Shown here piece after piece: positions 6,903 to 21,122 of a stretch of 21,141 nt of DNA; position 1 is the first letter of the stretch, and each line of letters begins with the position of its first letter. Both the position numbers and the translations under genes were made by a program. The stretch covers positions 1 through 21,141 of the forward strand of contig JAEOTO010000029.1 of assembly GCA_016839805.1 (NCBI GenBank), written 5' to 3'. Source of the stretch: Candidatus Hermodarchaeota archaeon. GTDB taxonomy: Archaea; Asgardarchaeota; Hermodarchaeia; Hermodarchaeales; Hermodarchaeaceae. The notes beneath the pieces are model-generated. The model worked only from the letters and a program-made list of their open reading frames with translations, did not search any database and had not been told where the DNA came from.

Positions 6903-6950
6903 AATACTTGTCTTCGAAACTCAGCTGAATGGCACATAGCGCACGGAAAA
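6903..6950 (+). repeat. Dispersed repeat, right-hand box only (GTCTTCGA at 6910)
   Basis: GTCTTCGA-N14-GCACATAGC-N5-GAAAA aligns without gaps to the right half of the full copies at 14038 and 21030. It begins just after the ligase stop. Confidence 0.6.
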
Positions 6951-7247
6951 ATGGTCTGCTCTAGCCTTAAAAAGAAACATTTTCCTCCCAAAGCTACAGC
7001 ACGCCTTCTAACTATATTTACAAATCCTACAACAAGTTAGTCTAGCGGTATCTAGGTGGCAGGGTGCAGAAAATTTGTCGGTACTTGCTAATAGTGAGGA
7101 CAATACCTAAACATGTTGCGTATTAGTAACCGGTTCCTCATGCCTTCATCGGTTCACCACAATTTTAACTTATATTGTACCCCTATGCAAGCAAGGTGCA
7201 TTAAAACAGAGCCTGTTCGTACAGTATGAACAATAGGATGGAGGTGA

Positions 7248-8534
7248 TTGAAGTTGGAGCTATGGCTGCTGGTTTTACTAATTTTTCTCTTGACTGTGTT
7301 GCTGATTGTGACACGTATGGTACATTATACGACGGCTGCGATGATTGGGGCGGTGTTGGCATCGATTGCGCTCATAACGCGGGGGGTACCGGGCCAAGAG
7401 ATTTTGGCAATGGTGCGCTTAGAGCCAATTCTTGTTATTACCGCGATGACAGTCGTAGCCGAAGTGATACGGGGTGCAGGGGTGTTTCAGTTTCTCGCCG
7501 TCCATTTCATCCGACTGACTCGAGGCGATCCGAAAAAGCTCTTCGTCTTATTTTGCTTACTTACCGCGGGCTTGTCGACGGTGCTTATGAGTACGGTGGT
7601 AATCTTAATAATGGGATATTTGACGATTTTAACATGTCAGGCTCTAAAACTAAAACCCCATGCGTTCTTACTGGGAGAGATGTTAGCAGTAGGTATTGGT
7701 GGAGCCTTCACCCTAATTGGAACATCGTCAAATGTAATCGTTGCAAATTACGCAGGATTTGATTTTGTCTACTACATCCTGCAATTTGCGGGGTTGGCAA
7801 TAATAGTGCTGATTGTGACGCTAGTTGCAGTGTTTTTAATTATTCGGAGCCAATTGGTCACAGTGGATAAAGAGGTGTTTGAGCTAGTAATGGATTTTGA
7901 TCCATGGATGATGGTTCCGAATCGCCGATTATTTTGGGTGTATGCCGGTCTCTTTGGCATACTTATCGTGGCATTTGCAATATTTCCTCAGGTATATGTA
8001 GTGGCGCTTGCTGGAATGATGGTTTTTATGATTGTAAGTCAGGCTGACCCACGGACGAGTCTACGCGACGTAGAATGGGCCATCATCTTTTACATCGGCG
8101 GTCTCTTCATTCTCTCAGGCGCCTTAGAGTATGTAGGCATTCTCAGAGTCATTTCAGAAGGGATCTTACAAGCGAGTGGCGGACAATTGATACCAGCTTC
8201 ATTGATGATGTTATGGGTAACATGGCTCGGCGCCTTCGTCATTGGAGGGTCACCCATGACAACCACATTTGCACCACTTGCAGTCGAAATGGCGACAGTA
8301 ATGGGTTGGACTATAGGGATACGGGACCCCCTTTTCTGGGGGATAGGATTTGGGGCCTCCTTGGGCGGAACAGCAAGTCCCTTTGGAACGGTACCCATGT
8401 TAATTGTTTCAATGACGAATTTCAAGAATTCCAAGATGTCCATACGCGCTTTTCTCATTATCGGGATACTCGTGAACATCATCTCGATTGTTTTGTGCTC
8501 ACTCTATATCTTGCTACTAGTGCCGCTTGTCTAA
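7248..8534 (+). CDS. ArsB/NhaD/SLC13 (ion transporter superfamily) permease
   Basis: About 11-12 hydrophobic segments with motifs GVFQFLA, IGGAFTLIGTSSNVIV, VEWAIIFYIGGLFIL and GASLGGTASPFG. A GGAGGTGA RBS precedes the TTG start. Confidence 0.85.
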   Translation: MKLELWLLVLLIFLLTVLLIVTRMVHYTTAAMIGAVLASIALITRGVPGQEILAMVRLEPILVITAMTVVAEVIRGAGVFQFLAVHFIRLTRGDPKKLFVLFCLLTAGLSTVLMSTVVILIMGYLTILTCQALKLKPHAFLLGEMLAVGIGGAFTLIGTSSNVIVANYAGFDFVYYILQFAGLAIIVLIVTLVAVFLIIRSQLVTVDKEVFELVMDFDPWMMVPNRRLFWVYAGLFGILIVAFAIFPQVYVVALAGMMVFMIVSQADPRTSLRDVEWAIIFYIGGLFILSGALEYVGILRVISEGILQASGGQLIPASLMMLWVTWLGAFVIGGSPMTTTFAPLAVEMATVMGWTIGIRDPLFWGIGFGASLGGTASPFGTVPMLIVSMTNFKNSKMSIRAFLIIGILVNIISIVLCSLYILLLVPLV

Positions 8535-8540
8535 GACTTC

Positions 8541-8575
8541 GAGAAGACCCCGTCCTTCAGGTCGGGGTAGTTCAC
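8541..8575 (+). mobile_element. IS200/IS605-family right-end remnant (subterminal hairpin + TCAC)
   Basis: GAGAAGACCCCGTCCTTCAGGTCGGGGTAGTTCAC contains an ACCCCG/CGGGGT stem with an inner CC-TTCA-GG and ends in GTAGTTCAC, the typical IS605/IS1341 right-end pattern. No transposase or tnpB is attached. Confidence 0.75.
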
Positions 8576-8738
8576 TTACTGAGTGTAATGTGAAAATGTG
8601 GATGATGATTGTTTGTTGGTGTTTGGCTTGGAGGGAAGTACTATAAGGCAGTCCAATCTCAAATCCAATATACTGATAGAAACAACAAAGCGGCATAATC
8701 TAAGAAAATAAAAAAAACTTCAAGATATGACAGGGCTT

Positions 8739-8770
8739 GTTATCAAACCTGCTAAAACGCTCGAAGACTC
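8739..8770 (-). repeat. Possible inverted right-hand box of the dispersed repeat
   Basis: The minus strand reads GTCTTCGA (8768-8761)-N17-ATAAC, versus N18 in the forward copies at 8803 and 17332. Confidence 0.45.
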
Positions 8771-8794
8771 AGAAAATTGAGGTCAGAATAAATC

Positions 8795-8843
8795 ACAATT
8801 ATGTCTTCGACATCTTGTAAAGCGTCTAATAACACAAAGAAAA
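8795..8843 (+). repeat. Dispersed repeat, right-hand box only (GTCTTCGA at 8803)
   Basis: ACAATTATGTCTTCGA-N14-TCTAATAAC-N5-GAAAA, located between convergent genes. Confidence 0.65.
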
Positions 8844-8902
8844 TCAGGTTACAGCAACACTTTGCTGCTTATTTTTTTAAGAATTGGTCGGAGTTGCCTG
8901 GG

Positions 8903-9511
8903 TTAAGATGTTGGGCTCGATTTCGTAGGTTTCTTACCTAGCTTTTCAAGACTAATTTTTTCTTCCTCTAGGTGCAATTTTGTATACTGATGTAGAAGCG
9001 AAAGATAAAGAAACTTAGCCTGATCTTCGCTATTGGCTTCGCCTTCATCGATTCTTTTCTCTATAGTTTCTGCGATTTCTTGAGCGTATTCATCGATTAA
9101 CGGATTTACGAGCTTATGGAGATCAAGGTCTTTGTCTCCAATCTTTCCTAAAAGGTATCCCCAAAGAAAGGTCTTGATTGGGAGCAACTGGGCTTCCTGT
9201 TCGGCTGGAGAGAGGGACCTCAGTTTCGGTACTTGCAGCGGGAAAACGGCGCGATAGAATTTCCGGATTCCGCCACGGTAGTATTCCTCCCGCGTCTTGG
9301 TGATTAGGTTCTCTTCTTCAAGGCGCTTTAAGTGGTAGCTGATTCGGCTTTTGCTTAGGCCCAACATCTTTGCTAATTCACCGAGGGAGTGCTCTTCTTC
9401 GGTTAAATGCCGTAGAATGCTGGCGGTAATAGGACGAACCAGCATAGACGCTGACTTGGGCTGGATGATAGATCGAGCCTGTGTGTTAGGGGGATTTCCC
9501 AGGGTCTTCAC
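8903..9511 (-). CDS. ArsR-family winged-helix transcriptional regulator
   Basis: ILRHLTEEEHSLGELAKMLGLSKSRISYHLKRLEEENLI helix-turn-helix with a GGIRKFY wing. It is divergent from the opine DH/B12 operon. Confidence 0.88.
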   Translation of the reverse strand: MKTLGNPPNTQARSIIQPKSASMLVRPITASILRHLTEEEHSLGELAKMLGLSKSRISYHLKRLEEENLITKTREEYYRGGIRKFYRAVFPLQVPKLRSLSPAEQEAQLLPIKTFLWGYLLGKIGDKDLDLHKLVNPLIDEYAQEIAETIEKRIDEGEANSEDQAKFLYLSLLHQYTKLHLEEEKISLEKLGKKPTKSSPTS

Positions 9512-9570
9512 ATCCGCGATTTTGTTCTGTGTTTATAAAAGTTATAAAGGACTGCAAAATACTTATATCT

Positions 9571-9626
9571 AATACAGTTAAATTTTTGACGGTTAAAAAT
9601 TTGACGGTCAAGAATTTGACGGTTAA
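9571..9626. promoter_or_regulatory. Tandem palindromic operator array (TTGACnGTYAA x3 plus one degenerate copy, 15-bp period)
   Basis: TTGACGGTTAA at 9586, TTGACGGTCAA (perfect palindrome) at 9601, TTGACGGTTAA at 9616, and degenerate AATACAGTTAA at 9571. TATA-like TTTATAAA (9532) and CTTATAT (9562) are adjacent. Confidence 0.75.
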
Positions 9627-9731
9627 ATACTCTCGAGTTTACCTCAGAGGCTAGTTTGAGTGCAGGGCTAGAATTTTACTCCACACGAAATACAGCCCCT
9701 TCAACCCCTCTGTGACTTACCCCATCAGGAG

Positions 9732-10886
9732 ATGAATGCAATGTCTGCCAAACTGGCAATATTAGGCGCGGGACACGGAGGCCAAGGGCTAGCAGCCTAT
9801 CTTGCCCTTGCTGGTCACGAAATATGTCTTTACAATCGATCAAAATCCCGACTACTTCCAATACAAAAGCAAAATGGGATCCATGTTGAGGGAGTTGTTA
9901 ATGGGTTTGCTAGGTTAGCCAGTTGTACCTCTAACATTCGAAAAGCGCTCTCCGATGTGAATTTAGTTTTTCTTGTGGTTCCTGCGTCCGCCCATCGTGA
10001 TATCGCCCAACAATGCGCTCCCAATCTTACACCCGAACAAGTGATTGTACTTATTCCAGGACGAACAGGTGGTGCATTAGAGTTCTCTGCCATTGTGGAG
10101 AGTCTCACTGGTTGGCGGCCAATTATTGCAGAGGCACAGACATTTCCCCTTGTAAGTCGAGTGATAGAGTCTGGAAACGCTTATGTCTCGGCTATTAAGT
10201 CAGAACTTCCCGTAGCTGCTTTTCCAGCAAAACAAACCAAAATGATCTGCGACTTGATTTCGTCCGTTCTCCCAGGTGTCCGGGAGGCCGAAGATGTACT
10301 CGAAACGGGTCTTACCAATATTGGTTCCGTATTTCATCCCGCGCCATTGCTTCTCAATATTGGACGAGCCGAAACCACCAACGGCCAATATAACCACTAT
10401 CTCGAGGGCGTCTCACCTTCGATTGCGCGCTTCATCGAGCATATTGACGCAGAAAGGGTTGCTGTCGGGCACGCCCTTGGTAAGGATATCCTTTCTGCGG
10501 TTGAATGGTTACATAAAGTCTACGACTCAAAAGGAAACACCTTGTATGAATCCTTGCACACGACTTCCTGTTACCAAGGATTGGGAGCCCCAAATTCGCT
10601 AAACCATCGATATATCTTCGAAGATGTGCCAACCGGGTTGGTTCCAATTGCTGCAATTGGTGAATTAGTTGGCGTACCCACTCCTACAATTCAAGCAACA
10701 ATTACCATGGCATCACAATTATGTGGTCGTAACTTCTGGCGGGAAGGACGTAACGCAGAAAATCTTGGTATTACGGATCTCTCTCCAACTGAATTACTGA
10801 TGTATGTCTGGGAGGGGTCTCTTGCAGCCCTCGAGGTCGCTGGCGAACTGGCCTTGGTCACAGAAGAAATGGAGGAGGCTGATTGA
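9732..10886 (+). CDS. NAD/NADP octopine/nopaline (opine) dehydrogenase family protein
   Basis: Rossmann motif ILGAGHGG, plus PGRTGGALEF, LTNIGSVFHP, IDAERVAVG and HRYIFEDVPTGLVP of the opine DH C-terminal domain. Confidence 0.9.
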   Translation: MNAMSAKLAILGAGHGGQGLAAYLALAGHEICLYNRSKSRLLPIQKQNGIHVEGVVNGFARLASCTSNIRKALSDVNLVFLVVPASAHRDIAQQCAPNLTPEQVIVLIPGRTGGALEFSAIVESLTGWRPIIAEAQTFPLVSRVIESGNAYVSAIKSELPVAAFPAKQTKMICDLISSVLPGVREAEDVLETGLTNIGSVFHPAPLLLNIGRAETTNGQYNHYLEGVSPSIARFIEHIDAERVAVGHALGKDILSAVEWLHKVYDSKGNTLYESLHTTSCYQGLGAPNSLNHRYIFEDVPTGLVPIAAIGELVGVPTPTIQATITMASQLCGRNFWREGRNAENLGITDLSPTELLMYVWEGSLAALEVAGELALVTEEMEEAD

Positions 10887-12634
10887 GAATGACCAAAACG
10901 CGCAAACCAACGAAAGCGAACAAACACATTCTGGGCGCGTGTTTAGGGAATTGTGTCCACGTTGCAGGGACGCTAAATTTCTTACAATTGGCAAAGGCCA
11001 AGGGATATTCCACGAAGTTTCTAGGACCTGCGACACCCATCTCCACGATTCTCGATGAAGTGGAGGAAACCAGTGCTCCGATTATTGGGTTAAGCTACCG
11101 GCTTACACCGGCAGCGGCATATCGCCTTGCACAGGAGCTTAAAAAAGAAGTACACGACCGTGGGCTTACTAATCGAATTTGGATCTTTGGAGGAACAACC
11201 CCTGTTACCGAGAAAGTGCGTGAAGTGGGATTCTTTGACTTTTACTTCGATGGTAATTCAACCGATGAAGACGTACTCATGTTTTTGGACGCTGACTGTG
11301 ACCCGCAACAGTTGGAGGAAAGGGTTCAGAGCTTAGATCGTGCCGCCCATGCCACGACTTTATTGGAACGGATGGCTGAACGGAAGCCCTGGCCTGTCAT
11401 TCGGCATCATTTTGGAGTACCAAGTTTAGAAGAGACGATTCAAGGAATCGCGAAGATTGCTGACGCCAAATGTTTGGATATCCTCTCTATTGGTCCCGAT
11501 CAAAACGCTCAACAGTTCTTCTTTCGCCCCGACGCAATGAAAGACACAGTAGAAGGCGCGGGTGGTGTCCCGATTCGAACCGAAGAGAATCTTCGCGCCA
11601 TATATGATGCCTCACAGCGGGGCAACTATCCTCTTCTACGATGCTACAGTGGCACCCAAGACCTCCTGAAATGGGCTAAGCTTCTCCACAAGACCATCAA
11701 CAACGCGTGGGGAGTGACACCCATCAACTGGTATAGCGCTCTTGATGGGCGAAGCACTCGACCCCTGGCGGATGCCATCCAAGAGAACATGAAAAACATT
11801 ACCTGGCATGGCAAACAGGGTATTCCTGTTGAAGTGAATGAGCCTCACCATTGGAGCCTACGGCAGGCCCATGATACCATTGCAGTTGCATCGGCATTCT
11901 GGTCGGCGTTTATCGCCAAGTCCATGGGAGTACAGCATTACATTGCTCAACTAATGATGAATACCCCACTAGGCACGTCTCCTGCTATGGATCTTGCGAA
12001 AATGTGGGCCAAACTCGCCTTGGTCGAATCATTACAAGATGATTCATTCAAGGTAATTCGGCAAGTGCGTGCTGGGCTCTTCAGCTTTCCCGTCGACCTC
12101 GATGCGGCCAAGGGTCAATTAGCAGCCTCTGCGTATACCTCGATGATGTTAGAACCTGCGATAGTCCATGTCGTGGGGTTCTGTGAGGCCGATCACGCTG
12201 CTACGGCTGATGATGTCATAATGAGCTGTAAAATTGTCCGGCAAGTTATCAAAGAGTGTAGAAGGGGCGTACCCAACCCACGGCTGGACCCACAGATATT
12301 CGCACGAAAGGATCAGCTCGTTAGCGAAGCGAGTCTGCTTCTGAGGGTCTTAGCAGAGCTTCCTGACGATAAATCGCTTCATCCGTTGTTGAATCCAGCA
12401 ACCTATGTGCTGGCTTTGAAGCAGGGAATTTTGGATGCGCCTGGCTTGAAAGGCAATCCCGCTGCTCGTGGACAACTTCAAACTCAGATGATCGATGGAG
12501 CCTGCTATGCCGTTGATGAAAATGGTAAAATTCTCTCCGAGTCGAACCGTCTTGAGGTAATCATTCCCAAGGAATTAGAAGCTTCAGAGAAACGACCAAA
12601 AATAAATGAAAAGTTGGAACAGCAAAATGCTTGA
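10883..12634 (+). CDS. Cobalamin-binding domain protein fused to a large uncharacterised catalytic (probably barrel) domain
   Basis: N-terminal B12-binding motif variant GNCVHVAG ... IGLSYRL ... FGGT. The ~430-aa C-terminal domain has RHHFG, RCYSGT, EPHHWSLR and HVVGFCEADHAA. It overlaps the upstream stop (TTGA), with an alternative ATG at 10889. Confidence 0.8.
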   Translation: MRMTKTRKPTKANKHILGACLGNCVHVAGTLNFLQLAKAKGYSTKFLGPATPISTILDEVEETSAPIIGLSYRLTPAAAYRLAQELKKEVHDRGLTNRIWIFGGTTPVTEKVREVGFFDFYFDGNSTDEDVLMFLDADCDPQQLEERVQSLDRAAHATTLLERMAERKPWPVIRHHFGVPSLEETIQGIAKIADAKCLDILSIGPDQNAQQFFFRPDAMKDTVEGAGGVPIRTEENLRAIYDASQRGNYPLLRCYSGTQDLLKWAKLLHKTINNAWGVTPINWYSALDGRSTRPLADAIQENMKNITWHGKQGIPVEVNEPHHWSLRQAHDTIAVASAFWSAFIAKSMGVQHYIAQLMMNTPLGTSPAMDLAKMWAKLALVESLQDDSFKVIRQVRAGLFSFPVDLDAAKGQLAASAYTSMMLEPAIVHVVGFCEADHAATADDVIMSCKIVRQVIKECRRGVPNPRLDPQIFARKDQLVSEASLLLRVLAELPDDKSLHPLLNPATYVLALKQGILDAPGLKGNPAARGQLQTQMIDGACYAVDENGKILSESNRLEVIIPKELEASEKRPKINEKLEQQNA

Positions 12635-12782
12635 AGAATTAGATCAAACAAATGACCAAGTGTGTCAATGTGGATTTCCGTTACACCCCGAAGATGATAT
12701 CTGTATAGCATGTCTGCCTCCCCAATTTCGAATGACCCTTGGTCGCCAAACAAATATGTATCATCTTCTAGAAATCAATTAA
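12627..12782 (+). CDS. Small Cys4 Zn-finger-like protein (51 aa, below the ORF-track cutoff)
   Basis: MLEELDQTNDQVCQCGFPLHPEDDICIACLPPQFRMTLGRQTNMYHLLEIN contains CxC-x10-CxxC. The ATG overlaps the end of the B12 gene by 8 nt. Confidence 0.6.
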   Translation: MLEELDQTNDQVCQCGFPLHPEDDICIACLPPQFRMTLGRQTNMYHLLEIN

Positions 12783-12878
12783 AGATGAGCACACCTAGAT
12801 TTGGATTAATCTTCTCTTATTTTTTCCCTTCAAAAACCAAAGTTTCGGAGAACGGTTTTCTCACAGTCAAGAACACAG

Positions 12879-12918
12879 GTAGATATGTCTTCGACACTTG
12901 CACAGGTCTGCAGATAAC
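12879..12918 (+). repeat. Dispersed repeat, right-hand box only (GTCTTCGA at 12887)
   Basis: GTAGATATGTCTTCGACAC-...-GCAGATAAC (spacer one base longer than most copies), located between convergent genes. Confidence 0.65.
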
Positions 12919-12927
12919 CCCATAATC

Positions 12928-13140
12928 CTATGGCTTCTTTATAATGCCCCACTCTATTCGTTGGAAGATGCGTTCTAAGACATAGTAAAGAATGGTTTTT
13001 ACAAGGTTAGCGATAAGTGCAATCATGATCGACGTCTCGATGCTCCCTGTAAATAACAATGCGATCAAATATGTGACTGACAAGGCGATTGCTCGCCAAA
13101 TCAATGACTTGACTAATGAACGAGTTCTTGTCTCTTTCAA
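12928..13140 (-). CDS. DUF2061 family small membrane protein
   Basis: ETRTRSLVKSLIWR..., two TM segments and LYYVLERIFQRIEWG. An AGGTGGAG RBS precedes the TTG start. Confidence 0.85.
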   Translation of the reverse strand: MKETRTRSLVKSLIWRAIALSVTYLIALLFTGSIETSIMIALIANLVKTILYYVLERIFQRIEWGIIKKP

Positions 13141-13932: not shown

Positions 13933-14037
13933 GCATCGTCAGATACACAATAACGATAACATAGGTTTCAATAGACTGTTTACTAGGCTGAAATGAAGGA
14001 TTTTTAATTCTATGAAATTCACCCTCTCCTCCAAGAC

Positions 14038-14130: not shown

Positions 14131-14204
14131 AACCTACTACAAGAAACACTCCAGTAAACATTTCTCTTCCGAAAATAGATTACTATATAATTTAAACAGG
14201 TGAT

Positions 14205-14912
14205 GTGATTTTCATGGTCAATATCGGACGAAGACTTCTTCTCCTCTTAATTGGACCCATTCTTTTCGCCCTGGGATTAGTCTTGGGGCTAGTTATCCTG
14301 ATTTTTATTATGTTTCCTACTTTGATGATCCTCTTCTACATCGGACTGCCAGCCATCATTGTGGTCACCGAATTACTATTTCTCTACATCGTGTACAAGT
14401 TTCTCCACCAAGAATCGTCATCACTGTCAGAACTAATAGGCTATGACCGACAAACACTTAGCCAAGATGTTGTGTGGATCGTTGTAACCTTTGGTATCTT
14501 CTATTTGACATTCTGTGCGGGGTTCCTTGTATTATGGCTCATCAATCCCCCGTATTATGCCATCTATATCTCTTATTTTCGCACACCGCTACCGCTCTTC
14601 TCCATGCTGTTCTACACCATCGTTGTATCCATCACCGCAGGCATAGCCGAAGAAACAATCTGGCGTGGATACGCCATCACTCGCCTAGAAAAGGTTACTT
14701 CCAGACGATGGCTAGCTGTCTTTATTGCTGCCCTCTCTTGGAGCCTTTTTCATTTTGACCCCTTCAAAACACCAGTCACCCTCATTAGCGGAGTAATTCT
14801 CGGCAGCCTCTATCTAAAACTTCAACGGGCTTTTCCTCTTATAGTCGGACACACGCTATTCAACATCATTGGCTATGCCGTTCCCTTCCTCCTCTTCATC
14901 TGGCTCCCTTAA
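14205..14912 (+). CDS. CPBP (Abi/CAAX type II) intramembrane glutamic endopeptidase
   Basis: AEETIWRGY, WSLFH and GHTLFN motifs in a multi-TM protein. Confidence 0.92.
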   Translation: MIFMVNIGRRLLLLLIGPILFALGLVLGLVILIFIMFPTLMILFYIGLPAIIVVTELLFLYIVYKFLHQESSSLSELIGYDRQTLSQDVVWIVVTFGIFYLTFCAGFLVLWLINPPYYAIYISYFRTPLPLFSMLFYTIVVSITAGIAEETIWRGYAITRLEKVTSRRWLAVFIAALSWSLFHFDPFKTPVTLISGVILGSLYLKLQRAFPLIVGHTLFNIIGYAVPFLLFIWLP

Positions 14913-14963
14913 CTCTTCTTCAAAGGTAAATATCCTGTATTGAGAAAATCGCTTAATCGAATA

Positions 14964-14996
14964 TTAATTACGAAACACATCATCTTTCACATCATT
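14964..14996 (+). repeat. Dispersed repeat, palindromic site only (left arm degenerate)
   Basis: TTAATTACGAAACACATCATCTTTCACATCATT has an intact right arm and a core with one substitution. There is no downstream GTCTTCGA box, and it lies between convergent genes. Confidence 0.8.
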
Positions 14997-15056
14997 GTAT
15001 TCGTCACAAACGATTTGAAAGATTTTTTTTAGGTTCATTGGGATGGAAAAAGCTAA

Positions 15057-15572
15057 TCAATCGTGTCCACTGTTAAGTTTTCTCAGCTGCTGTACGAGCT
15101 CCTTAAAAATCGGTATAGCTTGATTTAATGTCTTTTCCAGCTGTTCTAATTGTTGTGCTAACAATTGGACTTCTGTTATCTTTGATTCATTCAGTCGAGA
15201 ACGATCCAACCTGCGAGCAGACTCTGCCAATGAAACAATGGGCTCATGAACTCGTTCAGCGATAATAAGCCAACGTTCAATTGCACTTACAAATAGTGAA
15301 GTCATGGACGTTCCAATTTGATAGAGATAGCTCCGGTGGCCCGGTTCTTTGAATCGCCGGACTGAACCTAAATTTACTAATTGGTCTAAAGTCCGGCTGA
15401 CGGCTGAAATACTATAGCCTGTCCATTGAGCAATACTCTTTTGACTACGTGGTTGTGGAGCCAAGAAAAGACTGGCGAGAATCCGACCATGAATTGGCTT
15501 GAATCCTCTTTCTTCAGCAATTTGTTCTAGCAATTGAATGAACTGGGTGCGTACAGATTGGAAATCAGACAC
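15057..15572 (-). CDS. GbsR/MarR-family transcriptional regulator
   Basis: GFKPIHGRILASLFLAPQPRSQKSIAQWTGYSISAVSRTLDQLVNLG HTH with a C-terminal coiled coil. The likely start is GTG 15572, because the ORF-track start at 15734 overlaps the divergent gene. Confidence 0.85.
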   Translation of the reverse strand: MSDFQSVRTQFIQLLEQIAEERGFKPIHGRILASLFLAPQPRSQKSIAQWTGYSISAVSRTLDQLVNLGSVRRFKEPGHRSYLYQIGTSMTSLFVSAIERWLIIAERVHEPIVSLAESARRLDRSRLNESKITEVQLLAQQLEQLEKTLNQAIPIFKELVQQLRKLNSGHD

Positions 15573-15614
15573 GATGGATACCGTAGTAAATGTTGTAATG
15601 CAAAGATTTATATA

Positions 15615-15643
15615 TTTTGTTAATTTTGCATAATTTGACAAAA
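15615..15643. promoter_or_regulatory. Imperfect inverted repeat, candidate operator in the divergent promoter
   Basis: TTTTGTTAATTT-TGCAT-AATTTGACAAAA lies immediately after TATA-like TTTATATA (15607-15614), between the regulator and yip1. Confidence 0.45.
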
Positions 15644-15656
15644 ATAGCAAAAATTG

Positions 15657-16265
15657 GTGATTAAATTGCCTATAAAAACCGACTTTACAAAAGCTTGGAA
15701 AATCATTGTACACCCAAAGGAGCTCTTCAGCCAAGAGCGGGATATCAAAGGTTATTGGCCTGTGCTCCGATTCTATCTATTATTAAATGTAGTACTCGCA
15801 GTACTAACGCCCGTTGTCAACTGGTTTCATGTTCCCAGCGACATCGTGCACGCAGGCACTAATGCACAGATGGGAGCCTTCATTGTTGCTCCTTTCCTCG
15901 AAAGTAGTACAGGTATTAGCCGCTATGTTTGGGTTGGTTTACTGACCTATGCAGGGAATATATTCAAATTCCCAATTCTAGGTCTTATCTTTCATGGCTT
16001 TGCCAAGATTCTTCGTTGTCGCGGGACCTTCTTAGACTCTTTCAAAGTAGGCGTGTATTCAACTGCACCCATGTTATTATTCGGATGGATCCCCTTCTTT
16101 GGACTCATCTCAGGATTATGGGTCGGTTACCTCTATGTGGTCGCATTGAACCAGCTCCACGAAGTCTCCTTTGGCCCCGCAATCGCGCTCATTAACCTAA
16201 TGATTGGTGTACAGCTTGTTTGGGCATTCCTGTTTGGCTGGATTGGAAGTCCTATCCCATGGTAA
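15657..16265 (+). CDS. Yip1-domain membrane protein
   Basis: WKIIVHPKELFSQ, ~5 TM segments, GTFLDSFKVGVYSTAPMLLFGWIP and LWVGYLYVVALNQLH. The start is uncertain (15654-15667). Confidence 0.82.
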   Translation: MIKLPIKTDFTKAWKIIVHPKELFSQERDIKGYWPVLRFYLLLNVVLAVLTPVVNWFHVPSDIVHAGTNAQMGAFIVAPFLESSTGISRYVWVGLLTYAGNIFKFPILGLIFHGFAKILRCRGTFLDSFKVGVYSTAPMLLFGWIPFFGLISGLWVGYLYVVALNQLHEVSFGPAIALINLMIGVQLVWAFLFGWIGSPIPW

Positions 16266-16661
16266 AAAGAATCCACCTAATTACAGTCTATTCATTTGTT
16301 CAGTTTTTTTGCACACGATAGCTGTTATTCTTAGTTTAGTAACTTCGATAGGAATAAACGTACTAATTCGTCGTCGAAAACTGCAGGTTCGAGTTAAACG
16401 TATCAAAGATAAATCTCCCCTTCCTTGCCAAATGCCGGATCACAGACAACAAACAGCCCTCCAAACTTTCTAAGGTTTCCAGACAAATATACTACTTTAG
16501 GGATGACGTAGGAAATACCGGGTGCGGAACGATGGTATGCCTACTCTGTTCAAATCTAAATGTCACATATTCTACCATAGAGTCTCTACCCCATCGCAGT
16601 TATACAGATATTTCATTTTTGCATCATGATTTAATTAGTAAAAAGTTGCATAGATTGCTCT

Positions 16662-16859
16662 ATGTCATCAGAAGGAATAACTGCAACGAAAGTCTTTCAA
16701 TTAATCCTGGTTCTGATTAGCATGATCCTTGGTATTACAGCGGTGGTCGTCTCATATTTTGGCTTACCACCCCCTTATGATGCTGAGCCACTGTTAGGAT
16801 TTGGATTATTCCTCCTAGCTCTGGCTGGCTTAATTGGTGCTCTAAAGAAAAAAACCTAA
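16662..16859 (+). CDS. Small two-TM hypothetical protein
   Basis: 65 aa, ATG start, two hydrophobic helices and a basic C-terminus (KKKT). Confidence 0.65.
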   Translation: MSSEGITATKVFQLILVLISMILGITAVVVSYFGLPPPYDAEPLLGFGLFLLALAGLIGALKKKT

Positions 16860-16930
16860 GAATGACCATAGACTTTCCGGGTTTGCTAATCGTAGCAGGA
16901 TATTTACAGAACTCTCGATAAGGACCTCGC

Positions 16931-17279
16931 TCAGAAAAAAATAGTTGATATGCCTGAGGCTAATTCGAGCAAGTTCAAGCGAATGGGGGATGTAGAAGCA
17001 TATACACCTAATTTTGATTTAATCTGTTCATTCGCCATTGAAAAACAATAGCCTTTTCTTTCATCATTAACTATTGTTTTACTTTGGGGGGAGTTATATG
17101 CCGGTGGGAAAAGTGCCACTTTAAGCTCATTTCCGATATCTTTCTCTATGAATTGGATTAAATTTGATAAGCTTTCACTGAGTGTTATCTTTTTAGACCA
17201 GTAATGGGTGATGTCCGCTTTACTGAGATTTTGAGAGTAAAAGAGAAAGGATCGTTCTCTCCAGAATCTGATTAGAACC
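16931..17279 (-). pseudogene. Probable 3' gene fragment running into the repeat
   Basis: A ~115-codon, protein-like, AT-rich open frame whose only upstream ATG lies inside repeat copy 2. Confidence 0.35.
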
Positions 17280-17371
17280 AATGACGTGAAACAAATCATC
17301 TTTCACATCATTAGTAAGAAACAGCATCTACGTCTTCGAATTCCATCAGAAGAGCGCATAACACCCGAAAA
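17280..17371 (+). repeat. Dispersed bipartite repeat, full copy 2
   Basis: AATGACGTGAAACAAATCATCTTTCACATCATT-N11-GCATCTACGTCTTCGA-N14-GCGCATAAC-ACCC-GAAAA. Confidence 0.9.
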
Positions 17372-17434
17372 AACGGAGTGCTCTATCCTTAATAAGCACC
17401 AGGCTCTTGGACTTAGTTGTGAGGTGATGCACAT

Positions 17435-18472
17435 ATGCCCCGTCTGTTTCGAAGACGATCAAAAGCAATTGGGCTTCCACCTGGAACGCCAGTTTATGTT
17501 GGTGAGCAGCGACCCAGAAAAACAGTAATCAATATTATTGATTACAATGAAGATTCCTTCCAAGAGAAAGAAATCGGGGATGTCGCAGAATGTTCTGATT
17601 TTACCGACCGTCCAACTGTTACCTGGATCAAAGTCGAAGGTTTTAACAACCTTGAGATGCTTAAAAAGCTCTGTGAAAAATACGCACTACATCCATTAGT
17701 CGTTGAGGATATATTGAATACCACCCAGCGACCCAAAATCGAGGATTTCGGCGAATACGTCTTTATTCTGCTCAAAATGCTCAACTTCTCGGATGAAAAA
17801 GGCCTGATGGTCGAACAGATTAGCATTATTCTGAGCCAAAACTACGTTATCTCCTTTGAAGAGGGCCACGGCGAAACGTTTACTCCCATTCTAGAACGAA
17901 TACAAGTGGGAAAGGGAATCATTCAGAAAATGAAAAGTGATTACCTCGCCTTTTCCCTTTTGGATGTCGTGGTTAAAAACTACTTCAAAGTCATCGAGAA
18001 GGTAGAAAACAGAATTGAATTCTTAGAGGATAACCTAGTAGAAAATCCCACAACTGAAACTCTGCAAGGCATTCAAACCCTAAAAGAGCAGGTAACCTTA
18101 TTACGCAAATGGATTTCGCCTTTGCGGGAGGTCACCAGTCGGCTAGAACGTGGTCGTATTTCTCTCATAAATCAACCAATTCTCGTATACTTTCATGATG
18201 TATATGAAAATGTAATCCAAATCGCCGAAGCGGTAGACACTTTCCGTGATAAAATTCCAGTCATGCTTGATATCTTCTTTTCCAGCATCAGTTACCACTT
18301 AAACGAAGTTATCAAAATCCTTACGATAATAGCCACCATCTTCATCCCGCTTTCTATACTCACAAGCATTTTTGGTTTGACCATATATCTCCCCCCTCTC
18401 ATTTCAATACCAATAATTATCGCTCTAATTATTCTAATGATGTTATACTTCCGGAGGAAAAAATGGCTCTAG
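17435..18472 (+). CDS. corA: CorA-family divalent cation transporter (GMN signature replaced by GLT)
   Basis: GLPPGTPVYVG, LHPLVVEDILNTTQRPKIEDF, EQISIIL, YFHDVYE, LNEVIKILTIIATIFIPL and YFRRKKWL. A GAGGTGA RBS is present. Confidence 0.93.
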   Translation: MPRLFRRRSKAIGLPPGTPVYVGEQRPRKTVINIIDYNEDSFQEKEIGDVAECSDFTDRPTVTWIKVEGFNNLEMLKKLCEKYALHPLVVEDILNTTQRPKIEDFGEYVFILLKMLNFSDEKGLMVEQISIILSQNYVISFEEGHGETFTPILERIQVGKGIIQKMKSDYLAFSLLDVVVKNYFKVIEKVENRIEFLEDNLVENPTTETLQGIQTLKEQVTLLRKWISPLREVTSRLERGRISLINQPILVYFHDVYENVIQIAEAVDTFRDKIPVMLDIFFSSISYHLNEVIKILTIIATIFIPLSILTSIFGLTIYLPPLISIPIIIALIILMMLYFRRKKWL

Positions 18473-18484
18473 CTGAAACTCAAG

Positions 18485-18533
18485 TCATGTAAGTCTTCGA
18501 AACATAGGAGAACGGCATAAAATATAGGGGAAA
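18485..18533 (+). repeat. Dispersed repeat, right-hand box only (GTCTTCGA at 18493)
   Basis: TCATGTAAGTCTTCGA-N14-GCATAAAAT, located between convergent genes. Confidence 0.6.
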
Positions 18534-18601
18534 CCCCCCGGTTCCAGAAGTAAAATCGTCGAAAAGGCACTGCTTCATGATTTCTCGAAGGACAATTCTG
18601 C

Positions 18602-19064
18602 TCAGAAAATAAACGGTGGACCACTGGCAACCACGGTTAAATGCCCCCTAAAATCATTCCATGGGTATCCTGATGAAGATACCAGTTGAATGTTACATCC
18701 CCCGGGAACTGTAAGAAAGGGGGTTGCATGGCTTTCTGCAGAGTACGCTAAATAACTGTAAACCAGGTTGTCATTCAGGTCAGTGACTTGAATCCCCCAG
18801 TAATCCGTCACATACGTCACATGAACTGAAATCTTCACTCCGGTATGGGGAACAGTTAAAGTGATATTCGTGAAATCGCTAATATCGGGGAAACCAAGAA
18901 GCTCAACGGTTCTAGAAAAACGACCCGTGGTGCCGCCATCCCTGAATAGAAGGAGACGCCACTAAACACCACAATCAACACCACTACGACAGCAATCGTC
19001 TTCGCATTGGCCCTGATCTTTGTCGCGGTTTTTCACGTTTCTTCCTGGATCTCGTCTTCGCCAA
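18602..19064 (-). pseudogene. Membrane-anchored beta-rich protein split by two -1 frameshifts
   Basis: An AGGAGG RBS and TTG 19064 begin MAKTRSRKKREK, continuing as TATKIRANAKTIAVVVVLIVVFSGVSFYSGMAAPRVVF and then SRTVELLGFPDISDFTNITLTVPHTGVKISVHVTY...PPFIF. The frame switches are best placed at 5-mer homopolymers (19029-19033 and 18916-18920). Confidence 0.65.
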
Positions 19065-19206
19065 GACCAGTCCTCCTACAATAATCGAAAGTTAAGATCC
19101 TTCTAGTATAAAGTTGTTAAAAAGAAAGAGAAAGGCATCCAATTTCTCGAAGTTCTTGCTTGTCTTTATTAAAAAAAGTAATCTCAACAACGAGGTAAGG
19201 ATTACC

Positions 19207-19301
19207 TATGATGTGAACCAAATCATCTTTTACGTCATTGGGAAAAAACAGCAGCTACGTCTTCTACAATCATTCATGCGAACATATAACGCACCCGAAA
19301 A
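19207..19301 (+). repeat. Dispersed bipartite repeat, full copy 3
   Basis: TATGATGTGAACCAAATCATCTTTTACGTCATT-N11-GCAGCTACGTCTTCTA-...-ACATATAAC-GCACCC-GAAAA. Confidence 0.88.
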
Positions 19302-19553
19302 CCACTTAGAAAATCCAATCGTGTGCAAAACTACTGCTACAGGCAGGGAAGAGAAACACCTATAAACACTCTCGGACTTCCCTCTTGTTGTTAGCAAATA
19401 GGATTTAGTTTCTCTTTTTGAAGAGCTTTAGCTTATCATGCTAGGCAGCTATTCCCCGGAATTGCATTCTTCGGAACAGCACGGTTGCGTGACACAGCCA
19501 CCTATCTCTGAGAGATAACCCCATCTCAACTCAAGCAAATCGAGGTGAACACT

Positions 19554-19748
19554 ATGGTAAAAGGCACAATCAAATGGTTTAATCCCGACCGCAACTACGG
19601 CTTCATCGAACGTGAAACCGGTAGCGACGTATTCGTGCATGGCAGCGAAGTCGAAGGCGCCCACTTACTCAAAGAAGGCGACAAAGTCAGCTTCAAAATC
19701 GAAGAAGGCGATCGAGGTCTAAAAGCCACACAGGTCGCAGTAGAATAA
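19554..19748 (+). CDS. csp: Cold-shock domain protein (CspA family)
   Basis: KGTIKWFN, RNP1 NYGFI, RNP2 DVFVH and LKEGDKVSF. A GAGGTGA RBS precedes ATG 19554. Confidence 0.95.
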   Translation: MVKGTIKWFNPDRNYGFIERETGSDVFVHGSEVEGAHLLKEGDKVSFKIEEGDRGLKATQVAVE

Positions 19749-19878
19749 ACCACCCAATCACCCCGTGACCCAATCCAATCTCAGTACACCCATTTCACAC
19801 TGATTATTATCAAACTCAGTCGAAACAAGACACTGTGTTTGACCCTAGACCCCCATACAATGAAGGAGATGATAGAAT

Positions 19879-20061
19879 ATGAGCGAAGAAACCAATAATG
19901 AAAAACAAGCTGAAGGACGCGTGATGCGAGATTTGCAGCGTCGACCACGATCACGTAAGAACCGTGAATACGTCCTCATATCCGGTGAACGCGTCAAGCG
20001 AACAGATATCGGGCGGACCGAAGAAGACGAAACAGAAGAAGCTGAACGCAAAAAAACTTAA
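19879..20061 (+). CDS. Small charged hypothetical protein
   Basis: 60 aa, ATG with an AGGAG RBS upstream, Arg/Glu-rich. Confidence 0.5.
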   Translation: MSEETNNEKQAEGRVMRDLQRRPRSRKNREYVLISGERVKRTDIGRTEEDETEEAERKKT

Positions 20062-20078
20062 TTGCAAAACTCTAATCG

Positions 20079-20258
20079 ATATTCCTTAGCTGGTTTTGGT
20101 CTCTTGTAGTATCGCACAGCCTGTTGACGGTTTGCTGAATAGAGCCTAACCCCTCTTTCTCCCCGAAGGAATCGTTGGAGGTTATCATATTCAGCTTCCA
20201 AGATAGCTCTCTTTCTCTTAGTGAGTCTGACAACGCCACATTTGACGGTCAACCTCAC
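20079..20258 (-). pseudogene. tnpB: Truncated TnpB (IS200/IS605, Cas12f-like) N-terminal fragment
   Basis: RLTVKCGVVRLTKRKRAILEAEYDNLQRFLRG..LYSANRQQAVRYYK..KEY resembles the N-terminus of archaeal TnpB. There is no RuvC or Zn-finger domain, and an IS left-end hairpin lies directly upstream. Confidence 0.7.
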
Positions 20259-20305
20259 CTGCTTACTAGTGAGTTTACAGCTTTTCTTAAAAACCCTCAA
20301 AATCT

Positions 20306-20355
20306 AATTCATCCACCGATTGAAGTCGGTGGTCTTCTTGGATAGATTTGATAAA
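20306..20355 (-). mobile_element. IS200/IS605-family left end (hairpin) with putative TTTAT target motif
   Basis: The minus strand reads TTTAT|CAAATCTATCCAAGAAGA-CCACCGA-CTTCAA-TCGGTGG-ATGAATT, a perfect 7-bp stem upstream of the tnpB fragment. Confidence 0.7.
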
Positions 20356-20414
20356 GTATTACTCGTTTTTTAGTCAGTAGCTTGGGTCTAAAACTATATA
20401 AAAAAAGAGATTTT

Positions 20415-20987
20415 TTACGCAAGTAGAAAGTTTAGTACGATGTGCACAATCAATACGATGTATAATCCACTTATGAGACTCAGGTGGAGCATCCTGTTAG
20501 TATGAGGTTGAAGCTTTTTTCCACCTTTCAATGTAATGGGATTATATCTATACAAATATCCAGTGGCAACTAGGATAGCGACGAGAATATAGAGCGCTAC
20601 GCCACCACCGAGATCAGGATAAAATTGGAGTGGGCGACTCAGTTGTCCGGCCAAATGGATGGACACTAATAAGAAAGCGGTAGTAAACCCGAATATATGG
20701 AGGTTTAGCAGAATTTTATATCGCTGGGGGAAACGACGTTTCAGTATATAATATAATGGTGCGAAAACCAGGATAAAAGCAGACCCTATTATCCCCATCC
20801 AGTGAGAAAAGCGATATGGGCCGAGGAAAAATCCTGTATCAACAAAATCAAGTACAACTAATATGGTAACGATGATGATTGTGATGATATAGATTGTTTC
20901 TAATAAAAAGGCCTTATTCCTCAGTAAATTTTCTTTATCCTCAATTTTTGGAGATTGCGTCATAGACCATAGTGATATTGGAGTCAA
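20415..20987 (-). CDS. Five-TM membrane protein with intramembrane histidines (cytochrome b/ferric-reductase-like TM domain?)
   Basis: His residues in or near TM segments: SHWMG, NLHIFG, SIHLAG, MLHLS and IVHIV. The start may be 20966. Confidence 0.55.
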   Translation of the reverse strand: MTPISLWSMTQSPKIEDKENLLRNKAFLLETIYIITIIIVTILVVLDFVDTGFFLGPYRFSHWMGIIGSAFILVFAPLYYILKRRFPQRYKILLNLHIFGFTTAFLLVSIHLAGQLSRPLQFYPDLGGGVALYILVAILVATGYLYRYNPITLKGGKKLQPHTNRMLHLSLISGLYIVLIVHIVLNFLLA

Positions 20988-21029
20988 TTTAAATTTTGCG
21001 AGAAAAGTTCCTATTTACTACTGATAGTG

Positions 21030-21122
21030 AATAATGTGAACCAAATCATCTTTCACATCATTGATTAGTAATTGCACTTATGTCTTCGACTTCCTGTAAG
21101 GTGGCGAATGACAACTTGAAAA
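21030..21122 (+). repeat. Dispersed bipartite repeat, full copy 4
   Basis: AATAATGTGAACCAAATCATCTTTCACATCATT-N11-GCACTTATGTCTTCGA-N14-GCGAATGAC-N5-GAAAA. Confidence 0.9.

Follow-up and report, generated by a model that had tools for sequence, protein, structure and literature searches.

A probable cassette array in a Hermodarchaeum genome, with exchange at the core of a composite repeat

Described cassette and module systems

Integrons are, to our knowledge, the only well-understood platform for the stockpiling and reshuffling of single-gene cassettes, and they were long held to be bacterial. In pdif modules and in tandem IMEX arrays, as on Acinetobacter plasmids and in the Vibrio cholerae TLC-CTX arrays, integrase-less modules are bounded by dif-like sites for a host recombinase (XerC/XerD); the pdif site is a 28-bp sequence of 11-6-11 structure, found in alternating orientation, with exchange in the 6-bp centre between the two inverted 11-bp arms. 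Tyrosine and serine recombinases normally require inverted arms flanking the core. In lambda attP x attB, cer/psi and TrwC oriT recombination, a long site with protein elements can recombine with a near-minimal partner. Integron cassette arrays have been described in archaea, with CALINs enriched in Asgard archaea and two attCs in one Hermodarchaeum MAG (Ghaly et al., 2022; PMC9668308). The archaeal dif site is also of the 11-6-11 form (PMC2958812).

The window analyzed here is a stretch of 21,141 nucleotides from a Candidatus Hermodarchaeota archaeon (assembly GCA_016839805.1, contig JAEOTO010000029.1). It is probably a fragment of a chromosomal cassette array whose upkeep and rearrangement depend on site-specific recombination at an undescribed type of site. 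As in integrons and CALINs, arrays of co-oriented sites lie between unrelated small gene units and exchange takes place at a short core; sites are alike within the lineage, cassettes are shuffled and shared, and assemblies break in the arrays. Of the features that mark integrons, co-oriented sites, variation in order and a fixed exchange point were observed here, whereas an IntI with its additional domain and cassettes made up mostly of single, promoterless, co-oriented ORFs were not. Unlike in integrons, no IntI, attC boxes or folded-strand signature were found, no attI/Pc-type entry point was seen, genes lie in either orientation (often with their own regulator), and the cassette pool is largely genus-wide. 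The Hermodarchaeum site looks duplex, with a palindrome, a core 20 nt away and then a tail. No publication on arrays of this repeat type was found in the literature.

The repeat, its distribution and its cargo

The repeat unit observed is about 120 nt long and consists of a 33-bp palindrome (A) with 11-9-11 (or 13-7-13) geometry, a 19-nt spacer, the core TAYGTCTTCGA and a tail of about 60 nt (B). The core is near-invariant and is the best-conserved stretch of the unit (1.4-1.9 bits per position, n = 114 copies), the tail is module-specific, and good similarity among copies spans the 60-75 nt of palindrome, spacer and core. The core has no dyad symmetry and no flanking inverted arms. When 53 copies were folded with RNAalifold, 0 consensus pairs and no conserved fold were obtained. 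Covariation in the palindrome (12 bp) was likewise absent, with 79.2% of positions paired against 79.7% in shuffles and no excess of compensatory changes. From this it follows that the sequence is conserved and not a fold. It is proposed that the palindrome acts as duplex DNA to which a dimeric protein binds, and not as a hairpin.

These properties bear on whether the region is a CALIN, in which divergent attC sites act as folded single strands for an IntI encoded elsewhere. Co-oriented sites separating unrelated genes would fit such an array, as would the Asgard enrichment of archaeal CALINs and the two attCs in one MAG (PMC9668308). However, RYYYAAC ... GTTRRRY boxes were absent from every repeat copy and from the consensus, and the single occurrence of the pattern on each strand of the window, at 12271-12394, is off any copy. 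The lack of a conserved fold and of covariation also speaks against this reading, as do ORFs facing both ways, the missing IntI (XerA reaches 148 bits against 265) and a crossover that lies mid-site at GTCTTCGA and not at GTT. Indirect evidence comes from JAEOSK and JAEOUH, which carry long arrays and are absent from the attC-positive genomes of PMC9668308. A CALIN is thus scarcely tenable, and the difference from integrons that an earlier note on this DNA had claimed is borne out.

A profile built from full copies (nhmmer, E <= 0.01) recovered, on the + strand, eight of the nine copies that the earlier note had described as co-oriented and intergenic, and the ninth (12887) is supported by its exact core and by the start of homology there (Table 1). 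The existence, shared direction and intergenic position of all nine were thus confirmed. The same note was right that no copy lies in 1-6901 (profile search) and that four copies are located between convergent gene ends. In the 2.31-Mb MAG assembly to which the window belongs, the profile found 34 copies on seven short array contigs and zero elsewhere, all co-oriented within their contig. These contigs are C1, C19 (the window), C20, C39, C25, C42 (5.4-6.4 kb) and C38 (0.6 kb). For the motif TAYGTCTTCGA, 19 occurrences were counted in this genome, with about 2 expected by chance; 17 of the 19 lie within repeat copies (16 of these on the five main array contigs and one at C38:653). The array system, of which the window is a single fragment, measures at least 45 kb and is split among about seven contigs. 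Since all genomes compared were MAGs and the arrays are located at the ends of contigs, assembly may have affected some of the adjacencies.

In all, 210 copies were counted on 41 contigs drawn from at least 11 genomes and metagenomes, and 209 of them have the same direction; the repeat family is confined to one Hermodarchaeum genus. REP/BIME and MITE sequences are also short, conserved intergenic repeats with a palindrome, but they occur genome-wide in both orientations, whereas this repeat is array-confined, polar and placed at synteny breakpoints. The view that it is neither genome-wide nor randomly oriented was hence upheld, as was the view that it is not a known IS end: none was matched, and Rfam covariance models gave zero matches in the window up to E = 1. 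The arrays resemble pdif modules in being integrase-less, but the palindrome has a different geometry from the pdif site, the crossover lies outside it, and module-flanking sites are direct here and inverted there.

Table 1. Features of the window. Strand is marked with a dot where a unit is not assigned to one strand.
Feature	Coordinates	Strand	Evidence
Array-associated TBP paralogue and upstream region (gene 2-502, off the contig start)	1..624	-	Pfam TBP
Core block outside the array	713..6901	+	Pfam
Repeat, core (GTCTTCGA at 6910-6917) and tail only	6909..6973	+	nhmmer E 5e-9, profile positions 61-125
Cassette 1, ArsB-like/CitMHS permease (7248-8534)	6910..8802	+	Pfam PF03600
Repeat, spacer, core (TATGTCTTCGA at 8800-8810) and tail, without palindrome	8790..8858	+	nhmmer E 8e-6
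Cassette 2, ArsR, opine dehydrogenase, B12-binding protein, small ORF	8803..12886	.	Pfam
ArsR regulator (cassette 2)	8903-9511	-	Pfam
Opine dehydrogenase (cassette 2)	9732-10886		
B12-binding protein (cassette 2)	10883-12634		
Small ORF (cassette 2)	12606-12782		
Worn repeat, exact 11-nt core (TATGTCTTCGA at 12884-12894) and tail-like stretch	12884..12950	+	Below profile threshold; core match
Cassette 3, DUF2061 (12928-13140, -) and membrane protein (13339-13932)	12887..14089	.	Pfam PF09834
Full repeat: palindrome, spacer, core (14087-14097), tail	14033..14139	+	nhmmer E 2e-26
Cassette 4, CPBP/Rce1-like (14205-14912), MarR-like (15057-15734, -), Yip1 (15654-16265), small ORFs	14090..17331	.	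Pfam
Palindrome-only relic, no core after it	14972..14997	+	nhmmer E 0.008, profile positions 18-43
Full repeat: palindrome (17280-17312), core (TACGTCTTCGA at 17329-17339), tail	17276..17396	+	nhmmer E 7e-30
Cassette 5, CorA Mg2+ transporter (17435-18472)	17332..18492	+	Pfam PF01544, E 5e-51
Repeat, core (TAAGTCTTCGA at 18490-18500) and tail only	18486..18551	+	nhmmer E 6e-4
Cassette 6, short ORFs	18493..19258	.	No Pfam family match
Full repeat, core TACGTCTTCTA at 19256-19266	19202..19308	+	nhmmer E 5e-21
Cassette 7, cold-shock protein (19545-19748, +) and His-rich membrane protein (20415-20987, -)	19259..21081	.	Pfam CSD E 3e-21
Full repeat, core at 21079-21089, at the contig end	21025..21137	+	nhmmer E 5e-24

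The cassettes are small (median spacing of repeats, 1450 nt). Among 157 segments, 81 hold one ORF and 73 two or more. Orientation of the genes is unlinked to that of the repeat: across the arrays, 169 ORFs share its strand and 172 lie on the opposite one, in line with the claim that cargo genes face both ways. Pfam annotation also agreed with the placing of regulator-target pairs within one unit and with the cargo names given earlier (ArsB-like/CitMHS, ArsR, opine dehydrogenase, B12-binding, DUF2061, CPBP/Rce1-like, MarR-like, Yip1, CorA and Csp); the exception is a TnpB remnant, which Pfam did not confirm among the ORFs tested. Cassette 4 is possibly two cassettes fused at the palindrome relic.

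Cassette 1 is 96.9% identical over 1939 nt to G006:C58:17018-18950, whereas core genes are 74-78% identical. The cassette 2 block is found at 81-82% identity with other neighbours in G006:C9, G009:C12 and G014:C32, cassette 3 in other contexts in G005, G006, G007 and G014, and cassette 5 as a 77% match in a different context in G009:C12. Cassette 7 is present at 76-92% identity in G003, G005, G006, G008, G012 and G013, with different left neighbours. The TBP paralogue at the contig start is 89-93% identical at the nucleotide level to array-internal copies in G006, G009, G013, G014 and contig C20 of the same genome, while the core TBP of this genome (C4) is only 74-76% identical to it. The core block, which encodes a nitronate monooxygenase-like protein, a ChsH2-like protein, two thiolase-like proteins and an AMP-binding enzyme, has a syntenic counterpart of 74-78% identity at G006:C39:72659-78722, and no copy of the repeat is found within 20 kb of that locus.

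Exchange at the core of the repeat

Comparison of 114 junctions yielded 60 pairs with a common flank, of which 19 shared the left flank only, 40 the right only and 1 both. As 59 of the 60 related pairs share a single flank, the modules have been shuffled, and the predictions that synteny breaks at the repeat and that module order differs between species were met. When metagenome contigs were added, pairs below 95% identity with both flanks in common numbered zero in three of four bins and 3 of 51 in the 85-90% bin. At 98% identity or above, both flanks were common in 40 of 47 junction pairs, so within one species order is mostly stable and events are rare. Across species, identity reaches 97% for the ArsB-like module (G000 vs G006) and 92% for the modules with TBP and the His-membrane protein, against 65-78% for syntenic core genes. 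Cassette families recur across the genus and the cargo pool is largely common. The data demonstrate shuffling and exchange between species but not the capture of foreign genes, so that of the "gene-capture and shuffling platform" suggested by the earlier note only the second half is shown.

The breakpoints are precise. Left-sharing alignments stop at or before core position +9, right-sharing ones begin at -3 to 0 of the core in 11 cases, and excess identity over background, first seen in left-sharing pairs, passes to the right-sharing ones between -1 and +6. Exchange thus maps to the 8-11 nt core, downstream of the palindrome by about 20-30 nt; the palindrome itself was rejected as the crossover point. 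Because the crossover lies mid-site, the 5' end of each cassette is formed by the tail and the 3' end by the palindrome. The same boundaries are visible in the window. The first copy, which comes straight after the AMP-binding enzyme gene and its stop codon, is the left array edge in this contig, and the 97% homology to G006:C58 begins there at 6909. At the second copy, identity of 97-98% to G006 stops at core +7 and homology of the following module to four genomes begins at 8794-8802. At the worn copy, homology to four other genomes sets in, and that of the DUF2061 module to G007, G005 and G014 begins at 12884-12888. At the copy in 19202..19308, right-flank sharing begins at -3 to +12 of the core, and the tail of this copy accompanies the Csp module in five further genomes. 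The assembly breaks at the last copy.

Recent events were observed in near-identical environmental contigs, where module presence or absence changes at the repeat, as had been anticipated. Contig L087 is 99.9% identical over 14.4 kb to G006:C58, from a sister MAG, except for the exact loss of 47271-50906, which amounts to two cassettes. In contig L060, 11.2 kb of sequence 99.4% identical to G006:C9 give way to a different cassette, a replacement. At both chimeric junctions the sole possible crossover interval is TATGTCTTCGA(A); one parent site lacks the palindrome and any further homology. The L087 event is the one instance in which a full site was seen to recombine with a core-plus-tail site, which suggests that the donor-type site is complex and the target minimal. 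This is like lambda attP x attB, cer/psi and the TrwC relaxase at oriT, although no arm-binding integrase, relaxase or HUH enzyme was detected here and the palindrome shows no hairpin constraint.

The same data make it unlikely that the repeat is passive, acting as a terminator, insulator or punctuation mark between modules that move by homologous or microhomology recombination without a dedicated enzyme. That no recombinase was found would agree with this, the stretch of 60-75 nt that is similar among copies could support homologous exchange, and the cassette pool is genus-wide. However, the breakpoints fall in the 8-11 nt core and are not spread throughout the conserved 75 nt, and the L087 parents have no more in common than the 11-nt core and tails of about 60% similarity, one of them lacking the palindrome. 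Co-orientation and confinement to arrays are also unexpected for a passive repeat, and its orientation is not linked to that of the genes.

Recombinase candidates and proposed mechanism

No recombinase gene was found in or beside any array searched, on genome or metagenome contigs, which is what the earlier note had predicted. PF00589 matched only XerA and one strain-specific enzyme in the window's own genome, and nothing on the array contigs of six genomes. XerA scored 266 bits with NF040815 (cut-off 220), whereas the integron-integrase model TIGR02249 gave 148 bits (XerA) and 51 bits against a cut-off of 265. Since the MAGs are 72-91% complete, absence of IntI is not proven. HUH transposases (PF01797, PF04986 and PF14214) gave zero matches in five genomes, the latter two models being silent in control genomes too. 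IS200/IS605, IS91 and Helitron-like HUH elements, in which subterminal hairpins guide cleavage, were rejected on this result and on the lack of hairpin covariation.

The strain-specific tyrosine recombinase (C24:288-1367) has no orthologue in 18 relatives. At the far end of its contig, a part of the palindrome made up of the left arm plus AAATCAT is followed by unrelated DNA. Together with att-like direct repeats bounding the modules, this enzyme and contig end would suit integrase-less remnants of mobile elements, accreted at one att site and moved in trans by the integrase of a mobile element. Such an origin is nevertheless quite improbable: the small cassettes carry housekeeping-like transporters and regulators and no element backbone, arrays are genus-wide while the extra integrase is not, and crossovers fall at the core and not the palindrome.

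XerA is the only conserved recombinase candidate of known type in these genomes. It is inferred, tentatively, that the enzyme, encoded outside the arrays, may be this conserved, single XerA-family tyrosine recombinase, possibly with an accessory protein on the palindrome; otherwise, it would belong to an unrecognised family. In the preferred explanation, site-specific recombination, each cassette runs from the core through the tail (B) to the gene or genes, in either orientation and with their own signals, and on to the palindrome (A), spacer and next core. Strand exchange occurs inside TAYGTCTTCGA, whose asymmetry would keep all sites co-oriented. Recombination of two direct sites would remove the intervening cassettes, presumably as a circle with one complete A-spacer-core-B site, and this circle could then be inserted at any other core, whether in its own genome or in a different one of the genus. 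Both the circular intermediate and its reinsertion are inferences, and no circular junction was seen in the contigs compared. The fuller proposal of an integron-independent system, in which a composite duplex site is served by a recombinase of an unrecognised family or by XerA redirected by an accessory protein, and in which a pool of transporter, regulator and even TBP-paralogue cassettes, shared among species, makes up about 2% of the genome, has in our judgement an even chance of being correct.

The array follows integron logic with a different site, no integron integrase and self-regulated cassettes, in the archaeal group closest to eukaryotes. If the proposal is true, it would add a second, mechanistically distinct route to gene-cassette exchange, and the 11-nt core with its 33-bp protein site would offer a handle on a new recombinase, or on XerA in a new role, as well as a potential site-specific tool for archaeal genetics. 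It would also explain part of the accessory-genome turnover of Asgard archaea and of the gaps in their MAG assemblies. With cargo that includes transporters for metals and ions, regulators and also a TBP paralogue, the arrays suggest a route by which the physiology of sediment archaea may be tuned.

Structure and distribution of the repeat

The repeat family was recovered directly from the window by a repeat finder. Nine forward copies had been claimed in the earlier note, and eight of these were matched at E ≤ 0.01 by a profile made from full copies; the ninth (12887) has an exact match to the 11-nt core, TATGTCTTCGA, and marks the edge of homology to four other genomes. The claimed absence of the repeat from positions 1-6901 was confirmed, with zero copies found there by the profile search. 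Further scanning of the assembly (a 2.31-Mb MAG of 50 contigs, 87% complete) found 34 copies, which are not genome-wide but confined to array contigs, with a single orientation per contig. The family is limited to contigs C1, C19 (the window), C20, C39, C25, the first 6.4 kb of C42 and the first 0.7 kb of C38, and small satellite clusters also exist, such as two copies in C42. Contig ends were found to overlap: a duplicated TBP paralogue links C1 to C19 or to reversed C20, and reversed C20 joins C39. Therefore the window is one piece of an array system that spans 45 kb or more and that the assembler left unresolved.

The site was described from an alignment of 70 full copies from at least eight genomes and a position table of 114 copies. 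It is a unit of about 120 nt with four parts. Part A is a 33-bp palindrome, ATGAYGTGAAA + CAAATCATC + TTTCACRTCAT, whose asymmetric centre is nearly invariant. It is followed by a spacer of about 19 nt (consensus TAAGAAAYAGCAYNTAY) and by the core GTCTTCGA, the best-conserved block (1.4-1.9 bits per position), which mostly has TAY before it and AA after it. The tail, B, spans about 60 nt and contains the conserved islands GC..ATAAC, GAAAA, and GCTTGCT, the remainder being module-specific. Among 123 matches, 71 were full, 32 lacked the palindrome, and 11 were relics with the palindrome alone. A distal-tail hairpin (TGCT..AGCA), found in no more than 9 of the 138 distinct copies, is a subfamily trait and not a general feature. 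The core resembles a palindrome half-site with four added bases (AYGT-GAAA in the arm, AYGT-CTTC-GAAA in the core), which could reflect one protein recognizing both or could be a coincidence.

An RNA gene was also considered, and was rejected based on the lack of an Rfam match and of a consensus fold, no consensus pairs being found over the whole unit with RNAalifold. No hairpin constraint was detected on the palindrome, where 79.2% of cells pair compared with 79.7% in column shuffles, and the arms assort freely at its variable Y/R position (U-G 16, U-A 13, C-G 8, unpaired 16). Given these absences, the palindrome resembles a site bound as duplex DNA by a protein dimer, an interpretation made from sequence alone.

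A 21-nt pattern from part A (at most two mismatches) is present in 11 of the 14 sister species of the genus and absent from 26 further genomes belonging to the family and phylum. When 185,579 prokaryote species, each represented by one genome, were scanned for exact matches, the pattern was confined to MAGs of Hermodarchaeota/Promethearchaeota and a single MAG labelled 'uncultured archaeon'. A metagenome scan yielded 27 true array contigs. On the 41 contigs with at least two copies, 209 of 210 copies lie on the majority strand. The sole opposite-strand copy belongs to a pair of pieces that may be an inversion scar (table). Copies are spaced at a median of 1450 nt (interquartile range 1031-2304), and 168 of 197 are clear of predicted ORFs. 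The ORFs between copies lie on both strands (169 vs 172), with one ORF in 81 of the 157 segments, two in 32, and three or more in 41. Arrays of at least 50 kb were found in three of the genomes compared (G006:C58, G012:C42, and G008:C66).

Coordinates of features in the window (contig C19), on other contigs of the same MAG ("own"), and in the compared genome G006; L numbers are handles of loci or contigs
Feature	Contig	Position (strand)	Remarks
Array-linked TBP gene	window	1-624	
Core block	window	713-6863	collinear with G006:C39, 74-78% identity
ArsR/opine-dehydrogenase/B12 block	window	8800-12763	also in G006:C9, G009:C12, G014:C32, 81-82% identity
Genes of this block	window	9732-12782	opine dehydrogenase overlaps 583-aa B12-binding protein and tiny ORF; ArsR regulator divergent
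Conserved array flank	own C2 (L056)	26000-35320	older paralogues, 72-75% identity, of Csp module, ArsB-like gene, DUF2061
Worn inverted repeat copy	own C2	26030-26070	in this flank
TnpB zinc-ribbon fragment	own C2	33819-34040	in this flank
Ordinary TBP gene	own C4	6995-7482	74-76% identical to its orthologues
Single-gene cassette	own C20	6203-6509	between two full repeat copies; best own match (74.6%) of the 123-aa gene
Array-linked TBP gene	own C20	9088-9712	
Tyrosine recombinase	own C24 (26 kb; L054, L106)	288-1367 (-)	strain-specific, at one end; no orthologue in 18 relatives
Partial palindrome	own C24	last 17 nt	other end; left arm + AAATCAT, then unrelated DNA
123-aa gene among core genes	G006:C39	71527-71833	
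Sole opposite-strand copy	G006:C58 (L011)	13854-13975	palindrome-only piece (+), 15 nt from tail-only piece (-)
Two cassettes absent from L087	G006:C58	47271-50906	

Position of the exchange

In G006, the match of the core block sits in a 30-kb repeat-free stretch that is collinear with own contigs C50 and C17. Array modules in other species are flanked by different neighbours. The Csp module, found in six genomes, lies immediately before the ArsR block in G006 and is separated from it by four units in the window. The opine dehydrogenase/B12/ArsR block itself is conserved and moves as a single cassette in at least four species. The ArsB and DUF2061 genes are adjacent in the own C2 flank and in G014:C21, and are split by the ArsR-B12 cassette in the window. 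A 'circular permutation' signal of the Csp-TBP cassette was ambiguous, since Csp-like genes are multi-copy.

Junctions were compared all against all as 1-kb segments centred on the core (114 junctions). Synteny was found to break at the repeat, as the earlier note had anticipated: 59 of 60 flank-sharing pairs have one common flank only (the left in 19, the right in 40), and both are common in a single pair. Alignments of left-sharing pairs stop at or before +9 of the core, and eleven of those of right-sharing pairs begin between -3 and 0. Identity measured in 6-nt windows stays above background until -1 in left-sharing pairs and is above it from +6 in right-sharing pairs. Crossover at the palindrome, as in a lox- or dif-like site, was rejected. 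Three junction pairs have alignments that reach into the palindrome, but their spacers are only about 65-70% alike vs 93-97% for the tails, and the overrun was attributed to conserved sequence that lengthened the match by chance.

Among junction pairs with flanks at least 98% identical, both flanks are common in 40 and one only in 7, and just two recent events could be resolved to the nucleotide. In the first, a deletion is observed directly: contig L087 (Ga0209636_10004393) is 99.9% identical to G006:C58 over 12,017 and 2,391 nt, and lacks exactly two cassettes. Its junction follows the left parent through ...CACATATGTCTTCGA and the right parent from TATGTCTTCGATACATG..., which leaves a crossover interval of 11 nt (TATGTCTTCGA). 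At the right parent site the palindrome is missing and the left side is otherwise dissimilar. In the second, a replacement is observed: contig L060 is 99.4% identical to G006:C9 and L070 for 11,207 nt, after which it runs into the cassette of L098 (98.9%), with TATGTCTTCGAA as the crossover interval. The repeated use of eleven identical nucleotides argues for a site-specific reaction over general homologous recombination, with the caveat that every genome is a MAG and the arrays sit at contig ends.

Known systems and the search for a recombinase

A REP or MITE family is ruled out by the confinement of the repeat, its polarity, and its link to breaks in synteny. Nor is the array of the pdif type: the orientation of pdif sites alternates, and the dif sites of archaea and bacteria have an 11-6-11 layout (PMC2958812).

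The classical integron reading was also rejected. As the earlier note had expected of the site, it is not an attC: the RYYYAAC/GTTRRRY boxes are absent and there is no conserved fold. Unlike in integrons, exchange in the array is mid-site and its ORFs have no polarity. Moreover, no IntI was found in the own genome, where both tyrosine recombinases fall far below the integron-integrase cut-off. On all these counts, the array falls outside the definition of an integron. Archaeal genomes were previously screened for attC sites, and one Hermodarchaeum MAG was listed with two attCs only (Ghaly et al., 2022; PMC9668308). Assemblies JAEOSK and JAEOUH, with dozens of repeat copies, are absent from that list and sister assemblies of the series are present, which is indirect evidence that attC models are blind to this site. 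No published description of such polar arrays in Hermodarchaeota or other Asgard lineages was found.

The earlier note had placed the recombinase outside the arrays. None was found within them, and the responsible enzyme was not identified. The own tyrosine recombinases are one XerA (315 aa; NF040815, 266 bits vs a cut-off of 220) and one divergent 359-aa enzyme. Five other genomes have one XerA each and at most one further PF00589 match (in three of the five), and their array contigs contain no PF00589 match. No serine recombinase, Y1/Y2 HUH enzyme, Helitron-like Rep, or SSV-type integrase was found in five genomes. An IS110 transposase is present in only two of five genomes, and the second own tyrosine recombinase is strain-specific. 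A scan of about 45 proteins from arrays and their flanks detected nothing recombinase-like, nor did such a protein turn up on the 27 metagenome array contigs, and the xerA neighbourhood contained nothing telling. A 471-aa family that recurs in arrays is a repeat-rich surface-anchored protein and not an enzyme candidate.

The roughly 45 array and flank proteins are cargo. They include permeases (CitMHS/ArsB-like, CorA, FTR1, GDT1, Na+/H+ exchanger, MscS, and ABC ATPase), the regulators ArsR and MarR, and CBS, PIN, LRR, old yellow enzyme, luciferase-like, C13 peptidase, and surface proteins. The sole conserved enzyme of a known recombinase class is XerA; its role as the array recombinase can only be inferred and is a real possibility, though less likely than not. 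The core has no inverted arms; XerA would therefore need help, for instance from a palindrome-bound protein.

Contig C24 has a strain-specific tyrosine recombinase at one end and part of the palindrome at the other (table), where it may carry a hybrid site from integration into the palindrome. Its genes occur in relatives piecemeal and reordered, some on array contigs, and no other repeat family was found on it.

Proposed mechanism and probable cassette exchange between species

Exchange within the asymmetric core of two direct sites would delete the cassettes between them. The excised DNA is inferred to be a circle, presumably with one complete A-spacer-core-B site, and its reinsertion, also inferred, may take place at any core. 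Re-entry at a core would keep polarity, and would put the tail at the 5′ end of the cassette and the palindrome at the 3′ end. At a core-only target, a tail-only copy would be left on one side. A tail-only copy is seen at the array edge (6910), as predicted by this model; its core comes immediately after the stop codon of a core gene whose G006 orthologue lacks such a site.

The TATA-binding protein (TBP) gene of the window, which identifies the contig as archaeal, is of a second class that is tied to arrays. The two own copies are 93% alike, and copies in arrays of G006, G009, G013, and G014 are 89-93% identical. A general transcription factor borne on a cassette is unusual. The 123-aa gene found among core genes in G006 has its best own match in a single-gene cassette, and it is possible that a core gene was recruited into the array.

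High identity between species is observed for several modules. The ArsB-like module and its counterpart in G006:C58 share 96.9% identity along 1939 nt that begin with the G of one core and end with the GA of the following one; outside this stretch the DNA is unrelated. The TBP and His-membrane-protein modules are 92% identical between species. Syntenic core genes reach only 65-78%, far below these values, which points to exchange of cassettes between species. One array flank, which adjoins hydrogenase/complex-I-like genes, shows synteny across three species: at the tail of own C2, in G006:C58 from 59.3 kb onward, and in G012:C42 from 46 kb onward. Judged from this shared flank, the arrays are chromosomal and old.
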